Of a stretch of DNA of 38,046 bases, positions 8,957-26,930 are shown piece by piece. A model generated the notes under the pieces. That model was not told the DNA's origin. It made no database searches and saw only the letters and a list, made by a program, of their open reading frames with translations. The number at the start of each line of letters is the position of its first letter. The first letter of the stretch is position 1. Both the position numbers and the translations under genes were made by a program. Origin of the DNA: Candidatus Pacearchaeota archaeon (GTDB taxonomy: Archaea; Nanobdellota; Nanobdellia; Pacearchaeales; DTIR01); assembly GCA_016211995.1 (NCBI GenBank), contig JACRHU010000002.1, positions 1 to 38,046 of the forward strand, in the 5' to 3' direction.

Positions 8957-11266
<2,310 letters not shown>

Positions 11267-11268
11267 AA

Positions 11269-11817
11269 ATGTTTGAAGATGTTAAGGCTATATACAAGAA
11301 TGATCCTGCTGTAAGGAATATAGAGTTTTTACTCTATCCAGGATTACATGCTATAGTTGTTCATCGTTATATCACTCATCCATTACATTTTATTGGTATA
11401 CCCTTTATTCCACGTTTGATCTCACAATTAATGAGATTTTTTACAGGAATTGAGATACATCCTGGAGCACAGATTAGAAAAGGATTGTTTATTGATCATG
11501 GAATGGGTGTAGTAATAGGAGAGACAGCAGAGATAGGAAAAAACTGTGTGATGTATCAGAATGTTTCACTTGGAGGAACTGGAAAACATAAAGGGAAAAG
11601 GCATCCAACAATTGGAGATAATGTGTTGATTGGTGCAGGAGCAACATTACTTGGACCGATAAGAATAGGGAATAATGTTAAAATAGGCGCAGAGACCTTT
11701 ATCATAGACCGCAATGTCCCAGATAACTGCACAGTTGTTGGTGCTCCTGGGAGAATTGTAAAGCTTAATGGAAAAAAAGTTAATACTAAATTAAAAAAGA
11801 ATAAAAAGGGAGATTAA
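11269..11817 (+). CDS. cysE: Serine O-acetyltransferase
   Basis: [18 protein letters not shown], and [15 protein letters not shown] hexapeptide repeats. Confidence 0.9.
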
Positions 11818-12729: not shown

Positions 12730-13108
12730 CAAGAAGGTAATGCAACATTTTTTTCACCCCAAACATGCTAACGAAATGAAGAATTTTAGTATCAAAGGCA
12801 GGATGGGGAATATAAAATGTGGAGATATTATGGAATTTTATCTAAAAATAAAAGATGATAAGATTATTGATGCTTCTTTTAAAACTTACGGATGTACTGC
12901 TGCAATTGCATGCTCGGATGTATTATGTGATCTTGTGATAGGCAAAAAAATAAAGGATGCCTTAAAAATAACAGCAAAAGATATTTACAATGCTCTCGGT
13001 CAATTACCCCCTCAAAAATATCACTGCTCTGTTCTTGGTATGCAAACATTTAGAAAAGCTATTAAGAATTATTCAAAAAAACAAAAGAAATATGAAAAAG
13101 TTTTTTAA
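12713..13108 (+). CDS. iscU: Fe-S cluster scaffold, IscU/NifU N-terminal type
   Basis: Three ligand cysteines in KCGDIM, YGCTAAIA and YHCSVLG. AGGAGG SD upstream. Confidence 0.85.
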   Translation: MTINYSKKVMQHFFHPKHANEMKNFSIKGRMGNIKCGDIMEFYLKIKDDKIIDASFKTYGCTAAIACSDVLCDLVIGKKIKDALKITAKDIYNALGQLPPQKYHCSVLGMQTFRKAIKNYSKKQKKYEKVF

Positions 13109-13943
13109 AAAAGAAAAATTGAATAAGCTTATAGAATTAGCCAGAACAAAAAAATATTCTGCACCAAAACTTGCTAAAAAATTTAGATGTGATAGAAAGA
13201 CTATTTTCAGAATACTTAAAGATAAAGAGATTATGCTCCCTAATCTCGGGCGATTTAAAAAAAGAATTTATTGTAATGAAAAATTCTTTAAAAAATTAAA
13301 TAAAATTTCTGCTTATTGGTTAGGATTTATTGCAGCTGATGGTGTTCTTTCTTTAAGAGATAAAAGTGTATTGATATGCTTATCAGAAAAAGATAAAAAA
13401 CATTTGTATAAATTTAAAAAAGCCATTAAAACAAATGCTAAAATTGGACTTATAAAAAGTAATAGGAGTGCCCACATAGGGATTTGTGATAAAGATCTAT
13501 TTGAATCATTAGTTGAAAGAGGCGTAACCCCAAATAAAAGTTTAAGCATAAAAAAGGTTAAATTCCCACAAAGGCTAAGTTCTCATTTTATTCGTGGTGT
13601 GTTTGATGGTGATGGAAGCATAAGCGGTTCTGATATTTCCCATATTCAGCTTATGATTGCTGGGAATAAGGAGTTCCTAGAACAATTACAAGATATATTA
13701 ATTAAGAATTGTAAGTTAAATAGAGTTAAACTTTATAGATTAACTAAAGGTAATGCCTATAAACTTCAGTATACTGGCCCACAAATATTTAAAATTTTGA
13801 AATTTTTGTATAGAAACTCTAATAAAAATATGAGATTAGATAGAAAATATACAAAATATCTAATATTCAAAAGAAAGTTTAAAGCAGATGCGTTGCATGC
13901 AGCAATTCTCGATTATGAAAACAAAAAAAGAAAGAATATCTAA
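13092..13943 (+). CDS. Free-standing double-motif LAGLIDADG homing endonuclease with an N-terminal HTH
   Basis: I prefer the ATG at 13092 (MKKFFKKEK). Motif 1 YWLGFIAADGVLS, motif 2 FIRGVFDGDGSIS. N-terminal SAPKLAKKFRCDRKTIFRIL is HTH-like. Overlaps the iscU end and the nth start. Confidence 0.8.
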   Translation: MKKFFKKEKLNKLIELARTKKYSAPKLAKKFRCDRKTIFRILKDKEIMLPNLGRFKKRIYCNEKFFKKLNKISAYWLGFIAADGVLSLRDKSVLICLSEKDKKHLYKFKKAIKTNAKIGLIKSNRSAHIGICDKDLFESLVERGVTPNKSLSIKKVKFPQRLSSHFIRGVFDGDGSISGSDISHIQLMIAGNKEFLEQLQDILIKNCKLNRVKLYRLTKGNAYKLQYTGPQIFKILKFLYRNSNKNMRLDRKYTKYLIFKRKFKADALHAAILDYENKKRKNI

Positions 13944-19286: not shown

Positions 19287-19532
19287 TCACTCAACCTCTA
19301 TCCCAATTCTATAATATGCTCCTTCTTGTTGTGCATAAACAATCTTATAACCATAATTTTTTATGCTTTTAACAATATCGCCGCAAAAACTTTCATCAAT
19401 TATTGCCTCAAGAATCCTTTTTTTATTTTCTGATTGTATCTCCTCAATCTTTAAGATTATTTTTGTGAAATTCATAGGGCATACCTCTCCCCTCAAATCA
19501 AGAACTTCTTTTTCTTGTTTTTCTTCTGTCAT
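19287..19532 (-). CDS. tusA: TusA/SirA-family sulfurtransferase
   Basis: LDLRGEVCPMNF conserved Cys-Pro motif in an 81-aa protein. Confidence 0.7.
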   Translation of the reverse strand: MTEEKQEKEVLDLRGEVCPMNFTKIILKIEEIQSENKKRILEAIIDESFCGDIVKSIKNYGYKIVYAQQEGAYYRIGIEVE

Positions 19533-19647
19533 TTTAGTTGATAAGTTATGTTGCCTTCTATTTAAATTTCTGATAATATCGATATTCTTCTTTCAATTTA
19601 TGATAGTTATCTACTATCATTTTTATTCTTCTATCTTATTCTCTATT

Positions 19648-19875
19648 CTAAATCTGATACTCTGGAGCTGGAATTTTCCTGCCCCATTTTACGTTTTCCC
19701 ACGCCCTTTCATGATAATAATAAAGAACAAACCTAATAGCATGAAATGTCAAGGAGATTACACCTGTCTCTGCCCAATTGCCTGTAATAAAATATGTTAT
19801 AGCTCCGAGTATAATAATGCCTATTATACGCCATGTCAATGACTTCATAATGGATCTTTTTCTTGTGTCTCTCAT
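19648..19875 (-). CDS. DUF2061 small membrane protein
   Basis: SLTWRIIG...ITG...LTFHAIRFVLYYYHERAW pattern. Confidence 0.6.
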   Translation of the reverse strand: MRDTRKRSIMKSLTWRIIGIIILGAITYFITGNWAETGVISLTFHAIRFVLYYYHERAWENVKWGRKIPAPEYQI

Positions 19876-19883
19876 TTTATCAA

Positions 19884-19960
19884 AAAAACCTGTTGGTTTT
19901 TAGGATGCTAAAAACAGAAAACTGCATTCTTTAGATTGCAGATGAATGTTTTCTGTTTTT
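19884..19960 (+). repeat. Degenerate GGATCC-core hairpin-module element, copy R6
   Basis: AAAAACC-tgtt-GGTTTTT (19884-19901). Core GGATGC (19903-19908). 13-bp stem AAAAACAGAAAAC(19910)/GTTTTCTGTTTTT(19948). Confidence 0.65.
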
Positions 19961-19998
19961 TTCATAATATCACATTTTTTTAATAGATATGAGAAGAA

Positions 19999-20913
19999 TT
20001 ATGCCCAAAGTTCTGTACTCAGGTATCTTTCGCCTGTATCTGGCAATATAACTACAACCTTTTTTTTCTTCCCCAGTCTTTTTGCTACTTGCAATGCTGC
20101 AGAGACATTTGCCCCGGATGAGATTCCTGCAAAAATTCCTTCATATTTTGCAAGTTTTCTTGCAGTCTCCATTGCATCTTCATTTGAAACCTTTATTATC
20201 TCATCAACAAGTTTTGTATTCAGAACATTTGGGATAAATCCTGCACCAATTCCTTGTATTTTATGCGGTCCAGGTTTTTCTCCAGACAAAACAGCAGAGT
20301 CTTTTGGCTCTACTGCTATAATTTTTATTGAGCTATTTTTTTTCTTTAAAATTTCTCCTACACCGGTTATTGTTCCGCCTGTTCCAACACCTGCAACAAA
20401 TGCATCTAAATCAGGAACTTGCTCTAAAATTTCTTTTGCTGTTGTCTTACGATGAATTTCAGGATTTGCGAGATTGTTAAATTGTTGAGGCTGGAAATAA
20501 CTATATTTTTTTGCAAGCTCTTCTGCTTTTTCAACTGCCCCCCGCATTCCTTTTAAGCCCTCTGTTAATATTAGCTGTACACCAAATGCTTTCAATATTT
20601 TCCTTATTTCAATACTCATTGTTTCTGGCATTGTTACAATCAATTTATATCCTTTAACAGCACAAACAAATGCAAGTCCAATGCCTGTATTCCCCGATGT
20701 TGCTTCTATAATTGTTGAATTTTTTTTAAGCCTGCCTTGTTTCTCTGCAGATTCAATCATCGCTAGGCAAATTCTATCCTTCACAGAGCTCATAGGATTA
20801 AATGATTCTAGTTTGGCATAAATAGTTGCAGAATTTTTATCTGTTACTCTATTCAATCTAACAACTGGTGTGTCTCCTATAAGCTCCAGTATATTTTTTG
20901 CTACTTTTGCCAT
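19999..20913 (-). CDS. cysK: Cysteine synthase (O-acetylserine sulfhydrylase)
   Basis: PLP lysine [19 protein letters not shown], and [10 protein letters not shown]. Confidence 0.9.
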
Positions 20914-20914
20914 T

Positions 20915-21205
20915 TTAATTTATATTTCCCCCATAAATATTATTTTGATTTTCATCTTTTATTAATGCTACATCTTTCCAGTAAACTATGAAGGTATGAG
21001 TATAAAGAGTATCTGGTTTTTCGCCCAGATAAAAAAAATCAGAAGAAACATGCTTCAAATATCCTTCTTTTTTAATTTCTGTATTCTCTCCGCATGTTAC
21101 TATTATCTTTTTCTCAAGATATTCTTCCAAGGTTTTACATGGAAATTTTTCTATTTCAGTTTTTTCTACTGTATTATTATTTTTTCTTCTTCCAAATATT
21201 TTCAT
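20915..21205 (-). CDS. Small hypothetical protein embedded in the sulfur operon
   Basis: I prefer the ATG at 21205, which forms an ATGA overlap with the cysH stop. The track start is a GTG 27 nt upstream. One-nt gap to the cysK ATG. No motif recognised. Confidence 0.5.
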
Positions 21206-21936
21206 TTTAACCTTTTTGTGTGAATCCCACACTCGCCGCCATGCTTAGCTGTTCCTTGCCATCTTCCTGCTCTTTCTGATTCATCTTCATCTGTAACTTT
21301 TGAGCATGGCGCACATCCAAGGCTCCTATAACCTTCTGCATACAAAGGATTTGCAGGAATTTGGTTTATAGCAAGATACCTCCATACATCAAGCTCTGTC
21401 CATTCAAGAATAGGATTTATTTTTGTTATGTTTCCTATTATTTCAATTTCTTGAAAATTTTCTCTAGTGAATCCTTCTGTCTTCCTTAAACCTGCAATCC
21501 ATGCATCTAAATTTTTAACAGCTTCCTGAGTTGGCACAACTTTTAAAAGCCCGCAGCATTCATCTGGGCACACAGAATACATCTCCTTGTTTAGTTCTTT
21601 CCTTACATAATCTGATTCTTTTTCAAAATCTTCATAAGGCAATAAAACAACATTCACTTGTTCTAGAATTTCAGGAGTCTCTTTTGCAACAACATAGACA
21701 AGAGTATTAAGATCAAATTTTTTATTTATCTCAACAAGATATTCCAAAGTTTTTTGGGGTTTATAAATTGTCATGATTGAAAATACTGAAATTTCGGGAG
21801 CAACTGTTCTTGCTAGATGAACAGTAACCATACTATCCTTCCCGAAAGAACAGCCAACAGCTATCCTTTCATATTTTTTTGCACTTTCAGCTATTAATTC
21901 TTTTGAATGTTCTATTTTGTCTATAAACGTTGCCAT
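21202..21936 (-). CDS. cysH: Phosphoadenylyl-sulfate / adenylyl-sulfate reductase (CysH family, Fe-S type Cys pattern)
   Basis: SFGKDSMV, C-terminal catalytic ECGIH, and the ECCGLLKV plus SLGCAPCS Cys pairs typical of the APS-reductase subclass. Confidence 0.85.
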   Translation of the reverse strand: MATFIDKIEHSKELIAESAKKYERIAVGCSFGKDSMVTVHLARTVAPEISVFSIMTIYKPQKTLEYLVEINKKFDLNTLVYVVAKETPEILEQVNVVLLPYEDFEKESDYVRKELNKEMYSVCPDECCGLLKVVPTQEAVKNLDAWIAGLRKTEGFTRENFQEIEIIGNITKINPILEWTELDVWRYLAINQIPANPLYAEGYRSLGCAPCSKVTDEDESERAGRWQGTAKHGGECGIHTKRLK

Positions 21937-21945
21937 TTTTCTTGT

Positions 21946-22218
21946 TTATCCTCCGGCTATGCTTGGAATTATACTTATAACACTACTGTCTTTAAGTTTT
22001 GTTTCTAAATTATCCAAAAACCTTATATCCTCGTCATCTACATATATGTTAATAAATTTGTGGAGTCTTCCTTCTGTATCATAAAGTCTTGCTTTTATTG
22101 GGTGCTCTTCAAAAAATTTATCTAAAACTTCTTTTACTGTTTTCCCTTCATAGCCTTCATAACTCAATTCCCTTTCTCCTTTTTCAGCTAGAACAGCCGG
22201 CAATCTTATAGTTACCAT
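21946..22218 (-). CDS. MoaD/ThiS-family ubiquitin-like sulfur carrier ending in GG
   Basis: 90 aa. The C-terminus ...IIPSIAGG runs directly into the stop. FINIYVDDEDI is a beta-grasp-like pattern. Confidence 0.8.
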   Translation of the reverse strand: MVTIRLPAVLAEKGERELSYEGYEGKTVKEVLDKFFEEHPIKARLYDTEGRLHKFINIYVDDEDIRFLDNLETKLKDSSVISIIPSIAGG

Positions 22219-22232
22219 TTTTCCTTTTTAAT

Positions 22233-22442
22233 TTATATTGAATAATTATCATGGGGCTCTAATGTATTGATCTTTTTTATCTCGAGGCTATTCTTTTTTT
22301 CCTCTATGCTAACCTCTTCACCATCTGAGAGCTGGTATTTTCTAACAATTGATTTGGGAATTCTTAAGCCGAGATTTAAACCCCATCTTGTTAATTTCAC
22401 CACATAAGCTCTTCCTTTCTTTTCAGTCCCTTTCCAAGCCAT
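22233..22442 (-). CDS. AbrB/SpoVT-domain DNA-binding protein
   Basis: GLRIPKSIVRKYQLSDGEEVSIE swapped-hairpin motif. I prefer the ATG at 22442 because the track start at 22463 is a TTG inside a palindrome pair. Confidence 0.55.
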   Translation of the reverse strand: MAWKGTEKKGRAYVVKLTRWGLNLGLRIPKSIVRKYQLSDGEEVSIEEKKNSLEIKKINTLEPHDNYSI

Positions 22443-22443
22443 A

Positions 22444-22463
22444 TTGATATCAATTGATATCAA
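22444..22463. promoter_or_regulatory. Two abutting perfect 10-bp palindromes TTGATATCAA (operator candidate)
   Basis: TTGATATCAATTGATATCAA lies immediately upstream of the ATG at 22442 on the minus strand. A direct repeat TAGAATATATA x2 follows at 22483-22507 in the AT-rich promoter region. Confidence 0.5.
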
Positions 22464-22520
22464 TTTAAAAAGCTTTATATTATAGAATATATAGTTTAGA
22501 ATATATATTAATCATAAAGA

Positions 22521-26343: not shown

Positions 26344-26679
26344 TTAAAATATTCTAAGAATTTCTTTCTTAATCCTATCAAATGTTTTATCATTAACAAC
26401 ACCTATCTTCATTATTGCTAAGTTCTTTTCTACTGTGAAAAGTTTATCTGCTCTTACTCTGCTTGACCTTAGTAATCTGCCGGCAGATAAATCTTCTTGG
26501 TTTATTATAACTGAAAAAGGCTCTTCTTTTATTATTGTTGTTAGGGGAACCATTATGCAATCATCTGACTTTTTATTAAAAGAATCATTTGATACAACAA
26601 GAGCTGGACGAACTTTGGTTCCTTCCAAATTTGAGAAAGGAAAAGGCAATAAAACTAAATCCTTTTGTTGAACATTCAT
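26344..26679 (-). CDS. mazF: MazF/PemK-family toxin endoribonuclease
   Basis: LVLLPFPFSNLEGTKVRPALVVS... ATGA overlap with the upstream antitoxin gene. Confidence 0.85.
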   Translation of the reverse strand: MNVQQKDLVLLPFPFSNLEGTKVRPALVVSNDSFNKKSDDCIMVPLTTIIKEEPFSVIINQEDLSAGRLLRSSRVRADKLFTVEKNLAIMKIGVVNDKTFDRIKKEILRIF

Positions 26680-26930
26680 TTTAGATATCTACTCCAGATA
26701 TCATCTTTTTTATTACCCCAAATTTTTCTTAGTGATCTTTCGCTAAATTTTAACAAGTCTCTAAAATCATCTTTCGCTTTTTCCTCTGTTCTTTGTGCCT
26801 TTTCAAGCAAGAGTTTTCCATCTAGCTGAAATAGGACTAAATCGTCTCCCTTAACAATTCCTAATTTTTCTCTTATGGATTGTGGGATAGCAATCTGCCC
26901 TTTATCTGAAACTTTTACTGTCTTCATCAT
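26676..26930 (-). CDS. mazE: AbrB/MazE-type antitoxin
   Basis: VKVSDKGQIAIPQSIREKLGIVKGDDLVL SpoVT/AbrB fold. 84 aa. Confidence 0.8.
   Translation of the reverse strand: MMKTVKVSDKGQIAIPQSIREKLGIVKGDDLVLFQLDGKLLLEKAQRTEEKAKDDFRDLLKFSERSLRKIWGNKKDDIWSRYLK

Follow-up and report, generated by a model that had tools for sequence, protein, structure and literature searches.

Several described systems handle sulfur by way of small proteins related to ThiS, MoaD or TusA. One is the CysO-CysM-Mec system of Mycobacterium tuberculosis (PDB 3DWG/3DWM), and others are TtuA/TtuB of Thermus and NcsA/SAMP2 of Haloferax. In Wolinella, a pathway of HcyS, HcyF, HcyD, MetY and sulfite reductase (Sir) has reportedly been worked out biochemically, by Krishnamoorthy and Begley in 2011. 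The gene clusters placed in class 4e by Iyer, Burroughs and Aravind combine a ThiS/MoaD carrier with JAB, an E1, SirA, a phosphoadenosine phosphosulfate (PAPS) reductase, Sir and a sulfhydrylase, with examples in Wolinella succinogenes and the crenarchaeon Pyrobaculum; in the proposal of these authors, the carrier is the final holder of the sulfur assimilated (Iyer et al., 2006; PMC1779556). Thiocarboxylate-dependent homocysteine synthesis by MetM/MetO is described for Streptomyces (GapMind, 2026; PMC13759103), and thiosulfate uptake by YeeE/YeeD (TsuA/TsuB) pairs a TusA-like protein with a membrane transporter (PMC11073785). Here we examine an operon at positions 19999-22463 of a 38,046-nucleotide stretch of Candidatus Pacearchaeota DNA (this whole stretch is hereafter termed the window), which encodes an AbrB-type regulator, a CysO-like sulfur carrier, a CysH-family sulfonucleotide reductase, a 96-aa protein and a CysK-type O-acetylserine sulfhydrylase.

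The window makes up contig C51 of an assembly that totals 0.92 Mb in 86 contigs (78% complete, 33% G+C), and its host, a DPANN archaeon from groundwater, has a genome size near 1 Mb. The sequencing runs listed as containing this DNA are groundwater metagenome DNA runs, possibly from the source sample, and no RNA run is among them. This genome and the relatives checked are incomplete metagenome-assembled genomes (MAGs), so that genes reported below as not found in them are not thereby proven absent. The five open reading frames (ORFs) of the operon all lie on the minus strand and leave no space for separate promoters: as read from the sequence, the AbrB and carrier genes are 14 nt apart, the carrier and CysH genes 9 nt, the CysH gene and the 96-aa ORF share an ATGA overlap, and 1 nt separates that ORF from the CysK gene. 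The unit runs on into co-oriented genes for a DUF2061 protein and TusA, across gaps of 123 nt and 115 nt. Both the packing of the five genes and the neighbours listed in the original prediction (TusA, DUF2061, CysE, IscS and two PP-loop thiolases) were borne out by ORF calls, family searches and direct reading of the gaps.

Measured against class 4e, the window has a ThiS/MoaD carrier, a SirA/TusA protein, a member of the PAPS-reductase family and a pyridoxal phosphate (PLP)-dependent sulfhydrylase, all co-oriented within 19287-22218, and a full example of the class carrying the same CysH clade exists in another organism (locus L080, described below). It differs in that JAB, E1, Sat-type ATP sulfurylase and Sir are not encoded in cis. 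Neither JAB nor E1, which belong to class 4e neighbourhoods, lies in the 38-kb window, as had been noted at the outset; the genome's E1, which has no rhodanese domain, lies on another contig, and JAB and Sir were not found genome-wide. The window also has CysK and not MetY, a CysO-type carrier whose free GG end needs no trimming, an added AbrB gene with its candidate operator, a probably Sm-like ORF, DUF2061 and a DPANN host. The locus is a reduced variant of the class 4e kind and not a new kind; the coupling of a carrier to a sulfonucleotide reductase, which the original prediction had pointed out, already occurs in class 4e clusters (Iyer et al., 2006; PMC1779556).

The other known systems resemble the locus in part. 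With M. tuberculosis CysO-CysM-Mec it shares a CysO-like carrier and a CysK/M-family partner, but here the partner is CysK-type, a Mec-type JAMM and a MoeZ-type E1 were not found in the genome, and CysH and TusA belong to the unit. The MetM/MetO layout of carrier, ThrC-like enzyme and ThiF is seen in a relative of the carrier (locus L093), whereas a search of the window's own genome brought up no ThrC-like gene. As in the TtuA/TtuB and NcsA/SAMP2 systems, a GG-ending carrier occurs in one genome beside TtuA-like PP-loop enzymes and IscS, but it does not sit by the thiolases and is CysO-like rather than TtuB-, SAMP2- or Urm1-like. Finally, the occurrence of TusA near membrane proteins (DUF2061 in the window, TauE in loci L006 and L009) recalls YeeE/YeeD, except that no YeeE/YedE-family transporter was identified and the link to CysH lies outside that system.

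The carrier, the reductase and the sulfhydrylase

The carrier gene (21946-22218, minus strand; 90 aa; PF02597, E 7.7e-12) ends exactly in ...IAGG followed by the stop codon, giving a free GG terminus. The best solved relatives of the protein are 4n6e_B (65 bits, E 4e-17), which we take to be from the BexX-CysO complex of Amycolatopsis orientalis, and M. tuberculosis CysO (3dwg_C; 49 bits, E 5e-12), and both alignments run end to end, beginning at residue 2 or 3 and reaching the final GG, with a shared motif around HxFxNIYVxDEDxRF. The pattern H(K/R)F(I/V)NIYV(D/N)DED(I/V)RF...P.(I/V)AGG is common to the carrier and M. tuberculosis CysO, and ...IP.xAGG is invariant in the carrier family alignment. 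Structures of MoaD-related, MoaD and SAMP proteins scored at most 31 bits (SAMP1, 14-26 bits), and two NCBIfam models, SAMP1 (53.9 bits, cut-off 60) and moaD_arch (42.1 bits, cut-off 49.5), both fell below their cut-offs. Judged by its sequence, the carrier is CysO-like and not MoaD- or SAMP-like. It is the sole ThiS-family gene found in the assembled genome. A molybdopterin synthase small subunit (MoaD) was considered and ruled out, since no MoaE was found in the genome and the moaD_arch score lies under the cut-off; grouping with MoaD in the company of MoaE, the outcome that the original prediction had named as contrary to it, was therefore not seen.

Homologues of the carrier, 42-51% identical to it, occur in three layouts. 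In the first, the gene lies between JAB and E1 genes (L106), or follows JAB on a contig that ends just downstream (L108). In the second (L092), the order is Rrf2, CysK, a ThiS-ThiF fusion, a CysM-like gene and the carrier. In the third (L093), a ThiS-CysK fusion is followed by a small Sir, TusA, a ThrC-like gene, the carrier (49% identical to that of the window), ThiF and NIL, and the CysK part of the fusion shares 66% identity with the CysK of the window. Gene orders of these kinds belong to thiocarboxylate-dependent synthesis of cysteine or homocysteine. Many of the homologues have at least 2 residues past the GG and would thus need trimming; the window carrier has none and would not. Within the phylum the gene is rare: only one of 400 genomes (G044) contains a CysO-like gene, which there stands outside any sulfur cluster.

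The reductase gene that follows (21202-21936, minus strand; 244 aa) matches PF01507 (145 bits, E 2.4e-42) and NF002537 (184 bits, cut-off 154), and the best solved relative of its product is M. tuberculosis CysH (7LHR). Cysteines of the CC...CxxC type that ligate a [4Fe-4S] cluster mark reductases specific for adenosine phosphosulfate (APS) in assimilation. In the window protein these are C127, C128, C208 and C211, which are invariant in the clade alignment and align with those of 7lhr, and the C-terminal ECGIH motif at residues 235-239, which holds the catalytic cysteine, is likewise invariant. From the Fe-S motif and the ranking of solved structures we predict an enzyme of the Fe-S (APS) type. 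The clade to which it belongs carries the signatures CSFGKDS and KCGGECGIH (the window CysH has His in place of the extra Cys of the latter) and counts more than 500 relatives in candidate phyla radiation (CPR) bacteria, DPANN, Asgard, anaerobic methanotrophic archaea (ANME)/Methanosarcinales, Thermoplasmata, Dehalococcoidia, Omnitrophota and Planctomycetota. The closest of them to bear an organism name is labelled Candidatus Pacearchaeota, and CysH was found in just one of 40 genomes of the same order. The operon is probably of the sulfur-assimilation/cysteine type and laterally acquired.

A possible source of APS is encoded elsewhere in the genome: contig C75 carries CysD (NF003587, 357 bits), next to a TauE-family transporter. 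APS kinase and Sat-type ATP sulfurylase were not found in the genome, and the presence of CysD without a detected APS kinase fits an APS-type CysH. No CysN was seen adjacent to CysD on C75, and no search aimed at CysN was made. That contig region (L097:1004-9778) also encodes a type I phosphodiesterase-like protein, an epimerase, a DegT aminotransferase and a GT4 glycosyltransferase, with an integrase gene nearby.

The last gene of the five (19999-20913, minus strand; 304 aa) encodes CysK, with 460 bits to TIGR01139 (cut-off 351), 299 bits to the cysM model TIGR01138 (below its cut-off of 394) and 414 bits to PDB entry 2egu. It scored 229 bits against the model of the cysteate synthase CapA (cut-off 600). 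No other CysK/M-family gene turned up in the assembled genome, and this one does not provide the CysM-type partner, which uses O-phosphoserine and a thiocarboxylate, that goes with a CysO carrier; a MetY-like gene is present on another contig.

Conserved neighbours of the CysH clade

Loci L006, L007 and L008 and genome G004, which consists of one 575-kb contig, stand for a sister lineage of Pacearchaeota type. The order in G004 and L006 is AbrB, CysK (79% identical), a 145-aa ThiS-TusA fusion, CysH (62%) and TauE. The TusA half of the fusion is 46% identical to the window's TusA. Its ThiS half is of a short ...YYMGGG type (NCBIfam thiS, 60.9 bits) with no sequence-level kinship to the window carrier, and this type recurs fused to CysK in L093 (47% identical). 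The short ThiS thus stands N-terminally in fusions both to TusA (L006:5552-5989, P0124) and to a canonical CysK (L093:67-1206), and because the GG is internal in both, cleavage or a non-carrier role is implied. Since two lineages of the same archaeal family put different ThiS domains beside the same CysH/CysK/TusA set, the link appears to be functional and not accidental. Together with L093 and L080, this arrangement shows ThiS-family carriers recurring by CysH, CysK and TusA in relatives, in support of the original prediction.

For a wider view, ORFs were called in 80 loci of the CysH clade (L012-L091); neighbour clustering drew on the 63 in which a CysH ORF emerged, with Pfam run on cluster representatives and searches of the loci with hidden Markov models (HMMs). 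An iterated TusA HMM drifted into sequence of the PALP family and was replaced by a non-iterated search with a Pfam check. DUF2061 occurred in 26 of the 80 loci, in 24 of these at most 3 kb away on the same strand. CysK/M-family PALP enzymes were present in more than 20 loci, a TusA domain in 21 of the 80, an E1 in 8, Rrf2 regulators in 5 and O-acetylhomoserine sulfhydrylase in 4, and a small NIR_SIR sulfite reductase with a ferredoxin insert was found in 14 of the 63. The conserved core is CysH, DUF2061, TusA and a sulfhydrylase, with or without Sir, to which a ThiS/CysO carrier is added now and then. Of all neighbours DUF2061 is the most frequent, mostly adjacent, and papers that mention DUF2061 give no function for it; the link to CysH provides this family with a context.

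TusA appears repeatedly in physical union with assimilatory enzymes, being fused to a sulfhydrylase, to Sir and to ThiS. In nine loci it forms the C-terminal part of a divergent CysK/M-like enzyme encoded straight after CysH; seven of these fusions were checked with Pfam (L045:8736-9941, L032:8660-9931, L018:8757-9944, L026:3285-4499, L020:4111-5355, L038:1743-2984 and L019:4431-5690), five scoring above the TusA cut-off and two just under. One further TusA domain is fused to sulfite reductase (L080:12080-14332, 751 aa) and, in two loci (including L030:4312-5322), TusA is joined to an ABC ATPase. The remaining nine loci contain a stand-alone TusA, several directly after a PALP gene. One literature search turned up no description of such TusA fusions among the 10 papers that it listed. 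Recent experiments support the idea that persulfides can serve cysteine synthases as donors and that the product released by assimilatory Sir is zero-valent sulfur (PMC13188885), which fits the TusA fusions.

Among the 80 loci, L080 (labelled Pirellulales) is the one with a stand-alone ThiS carrier, in the order Rrf2, DUF2061, CysH, MetY-like, ThiS (with a GGGKCL tail), E1 and JAMM, followed by the Sir-TusA fusion. We take this layout to be that of the Wolinella HcyS type. In L076, a CysO-type match lies inside the frame that holds its E1.

Two further sets of CysH neighbours were noted. Loci of Asgard/ANME type (for example L060, L061, L043, L085 and L051) place next to CysH a 400-450-aa PALP that is cysteate/threonine-synthase-like, an enzyme with N- and C-terminal thiamine pyrophosphate (TPP) domains that is sulfopyruvate-decarboxylase-like, and the 2-phosphosulfolactate phosphatase ComB, a gene set resembling that for coenzyme-M-like sulfonates. 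In two CPR loci labelled Saccharibacteria and Paceibacterales (L012:7281-8735 and L013:5990-7411), CysH is part of a 473-484-aa ORF; the extra N-terminal part in L012 looks by eye like acylneuraminate cytidylyltransferase. Each of the two ORFs is found in a cluster of sugar-modification genes that includes a B12 radical-SAM enzyme and SDR epimerase/dehydratases, a hint that sulfite is supplied for a sulfonated sugar.

A proposed protein-carrier route to cysteine and its alternatives

The reading that we favour, with a probability of about 0.45, is that the carrier, TusA, CysH and CysK together feed cysteine synthesis. CysH would reduce APS, made with the CysD encoded on the other contig, to sulfite. 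Reduced sulfur would be held on proteins, as a persulfide on TusA and, after adenylation by E1, as a thiocarboxylate on the carrier, and CysK would join this protein-held sulfur to O-acetylserine supplied by CysE. Use of a thiocarboxylate by CysK is a proposed step of this scheme. The carrier may also serve the PP-loop tRNA thiolases, and the Sm-like 96-aa protein could be an accessory. For the step from sulfite to sulfide, the assembled genome offers no candidate enzyme.

Several observations weigh against this scheme. The window's CysK is of the ordinary, sulfide-using type, and no CysM- or ThrC-like enzyme was found in the assembled genome. Nor was a sulfite reductase, either with Pfam NIR_SIR or with an HMM built from 12 Sir sequences encoded beside CysH-clade genes. 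JAMM/JAB proteins were not found in the window or the genome with PF14464, PF01398 or an HMM from the three JAB proteins beside ThiS-family carriers (L080, L106 and L108). The sole E1 found is atypical, a 493-aa tandem-ThiF protein on contig C63, and ThiS carriers are rare by this CysH clade: a stand-alone one occurs in just one of the 80 loci, besides those of the window and G004. In G004 itself there was no match to NIR_SIR, ThiF or CysD, and a weak JAB-like match (20.7 bits, below cut-off) lies in a 223-aa frame 17 kb away. With the assembly 78% complete, none of these absences amounts to proof. A genome-wide search for the activating enzyme, ATP sulfurylase and sulfite reductase returned the tandem E1 and CysD, and neither Sir nor Sat.

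The E1 gene (L098:12132-13613, minus strand) is packed with five co-oriented genes for proteins without Pfam matches (131, 425, 461 and 517 aa upstream and 552 aa downstream; region L098:10477-18256); instead of a plain MoeB, it may represent a ubiquitin-like or conflict system of its own.

Relatives with small genomes show similar gaps. None of 12 CPR/DPANN genomes with the CysH clade (those behind L012, L013, L016, L033, L036, L058, L063, L064, L067, L073, L081 and L086), one of them a single 774-kb chromosome, has an NIR_SIR match above cut-off, and CysD or Sat was seen in two of 13 relatives, with G004 as the thirteenth. Each absence is weak singly; jointly they suggest that in small genomes this CysH often stands without its classical pathway neighbours. 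It could be that in ultra-small CPR and DPANN organisms this CysH clade works without ATP sulfurylase and siroheme Sir, a TusA plus ThiS/CysO relay feeding the sulfhydrylase or using sulfite-level sulfur, with DUF2061 and the Sm-like ORF as components, an idea that we regard as a long shot. If true, it would amount to assimilation with a missing or replaced six-electron step. That many small genomes carry CysH with no Sir found prompts one to ask what function CysH has in those organisms.

There are other explanations, of which one leaves cysteine synthesis to free sulfide. CysO/MoaD-type carriers are said to be potentially promiscuous, according to Sasaki et al. in 2014, the source of PDB 4N6E. 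As the only ThiS-family protein found in its genome, the carrier might be general-purpose, TtuB/SAMP2-like in its use, and mainly feed TtuA-like and ThiI/MnmA-like tRNA thiolases, while CysK would take up free sulfide from sulfidic groundwater; the carrier gene would then stand in the operon only through the shared regulation of sulfur supply. The two PP-loop thiolases in the window, the canonical CysK, the presence of CysE and the failure to find a JAMM that could free cysteine all agree with such an arrangement, but the carrier is much nearer to CysO than to SAMP, Urm1 or MoaD, its homologues sit with PALP sulfhydrylases, JAB and E1 and not with TtuA, and the thiolase genes lie 6-16 kb away, outside the operon. 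We consider this explanation, the main rival, unlikely, if well short of far-fetched. That the protein is instead chiefly a ubiquitin-like, SAMP-like modifier activated by the tandem E1, its place in the operon reflecting regulation, strikes us as very improbable. Its free GG end, its best NCBIfam score (SAMP1) and the two-ThiF E1, the only one found, in an operon of Pfam-less proteins would suit a modifier; however, the SAMP1 score is below cut-off, the Haloferax volcanii SAMP1 structures reach about 14 bits compared with 65 for CysO, no JAB/MPN desampylase was found, and the homologues occur in sulfur-metabolic contexts.

A different possibility concerns CysH, which might act outside a path from sulfate to sulfide. 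Sulfite would then be an end product or be handed on, to a sulfonate such as cysteate, to S-sulfocysteine, to thiosulfate with TusA, or to export by TauE, and ThiS/TusA carriers would supply reduced sulfur separately. The lack of NIR_SIR matches in the 12 CPR/DPANN genomes, the window's genome and G004, the scarcity of CysD/Sat, the TauE gene after CysH in L006 and L009, the sulfonate-like neighbours in Asgard/ANME loci and the apparent CPR fusion of CysH to a cytidylyltransferase-like domain in a sugar cluster are all in keeping with this. For ANME and methanogens, the source of APS has been called unclear and sulfonate synthesis a possible role (Yu et al., 2018; PMC6286981). Against it stand the window's PALP, which is a canonical CysK and not a cysteate synthase, the 14 of 63 clade loci with an adjacent small Sir, and the incompleteness of the MAGs, and we rate it as improbable. 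DPANN archaea are commonly portrayed as incapable of producing the majority of their building blocks. An operon in which sulfur from sulfate, sulfur-carrying proteins and the making of cysteine come together, with its own conserved candidate operator, suggests that some of these lineages retain or gain a cysteine route of their own.

Regulator, small ORF and other features of the window

The operon's first gene (22233-22442, minus strand; PF04014, E 1.5e-7) encodes an AbrB/SpoVT-fold regulator, which most likely starts at ATG 22442 (69 aa) and not at TTG 22463, because the frame extended to the TTG crosses an operator-like palindrome and its footprint. This candidate operator (22444-22463) abuts the ATG and is a twin 10-bp palindrome, consisting of two copies of TTGATATCAA that make up one perfect 20-bp palindrome; the window holds these two exact copies of TTGATATCAA and no others, and the 16-nt core occurs nowhere else in the assembled genome. 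Before the orthologous AbrB genes in L006 (where the AbrB protein heading the cluster is 58% identical) and L008, the core GATATCAATTGATATCAA recurs without change at the same position, and the flanks have diverged (mean column identity 51%). Retention of the core within diverged upstream DNA amounts to a phylogenetic footprint. Upstream of the palindrome, an A/T-rich TATA-like stretch (ctataatataaagc..., 22471-22490, minus strand) is a putative archaeal promoter, and L006 has ttaaatataa at the matching place.

The regulator thus combines an AbrB domain, a conserved DNA target predicted from sequence and no toxin partner. A MazE antitoxin was considered for this gene and ruled out, as no toxin gene is adjacent (the next gene is the carrier's) and the operator has been kept in relatives. 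These features are most simply read as those of an AbrB-type repressor that controls its own gene, with a predicted operator lying across the start of a transcript that has a short leader or none: the AbrB protein would bind the twin palindrome over the transcription start and repress the unit. A genome-wide regulon search with the operator gave only two sites, each with 2 mismatches, of which one falls within an ORF and the other where a contig ends, and was uninformative. The window contains a second AbrB-fold protein, this copy with a toxin partner, in a MazE/MazF (PemK) pair (26344-26930) inserted among acetyl-CoA carboxylase genes.

The lineage-restricted 96-aa ORF between the CysH and CysK genes (20915-21205, minus strand; ATG start) has no family match. 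A word-index homology search returned only the ORF itself. When 1.8 billion representatives were scanned exhaustively with HMMER, a single true homologue emerged (P0122; 99 aa, 51% identity, E 1e-16). The contig that carries it, 2.4 kb long, has the order CysH, CysK/M-like PALP, ORF and TauE, and its occurrence in such a cluster, in a different gene order, indicates that the ORF is real and tied to this context. The cysteine of FPCK, within the motif EKFPCK, is common to both copies. An AlphaFold2 model from the two-sequence alignment (mean predicted local distance difference test score, pLDDT, 69; predicted template-modelling score, pTM, 0.59) consists of a short helix followed by six strands; a single-sequence model was unusable (pLDDT 37.6). 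Nearly all of the top 50 Foldseek matches to the two-sequence model were Hfq, Sm or LSm proteins (target-normalised TM score mostly 0.55-0.74, E 0.02-0.07), and VIA-align placed Hfq first (Z 8.5, root-mean-square deviation 2.1 over 61 residues), then archaeal SmAP and LSm. There was no sequence-level match to Sm, LSm or Hfq. The model is probably an Sm-like small barrel, with scores that allow an assignment of general fold only. In a protein-atlas look-up all matches were below 0.9, and the mere lead was DUF150_C in 18% of one cluster.

Two genes of locus L004 that occupy comparable places were also examined and set aside: a 102-aa gene after CysK is unrelated to the 96-aa ORF, and a 389-aa gene after CysH encodes a Cys-rich membrane protein like the window's copper-handling gene, not a sulfur enzyme.

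Downstream of the five genes, the DUF2061 gene (19648-19875, minus strand; PF09834, E 4e-13) begins 123 nt past CysK and encodes a small membrane protein. The TusA/SirA-family gene that follows (19287-19532, minus strand; PF01206, E 2e-10) encodes a sulfur-transfer protein with the conserved Cys in VCPMNF, whose best NCBIfam match, YedF, is below cut-off (35 bits, cut-off 79). Elsewhere the window is rich in sulfur genes, namely Thi4, IscS, CysE, IscU, a thioredoxin reductase, a thioredoxin-like protein and the two PP-loop thiolases. IscS (10106-11266, plus strand; PF00266, 313 bits) is a possible source of persulfide. CysE (11269-11817, plus strand), the presumed supplier of O-acetylserine, matches the serine O-acetyltransferase EpsC model NF041874 with 209 bits (cut-off 150) and the cysE model TIGR01172 with 205 bits, just under the cut-off of 210.65. 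Two free-standing LAGLIDADG/helix-turn-helix ORFs were also seen, one in the window at 12990-13943, overlapping the end of iscU, and one at C75:1939-2862, wedged between cysD and the TauE gene.

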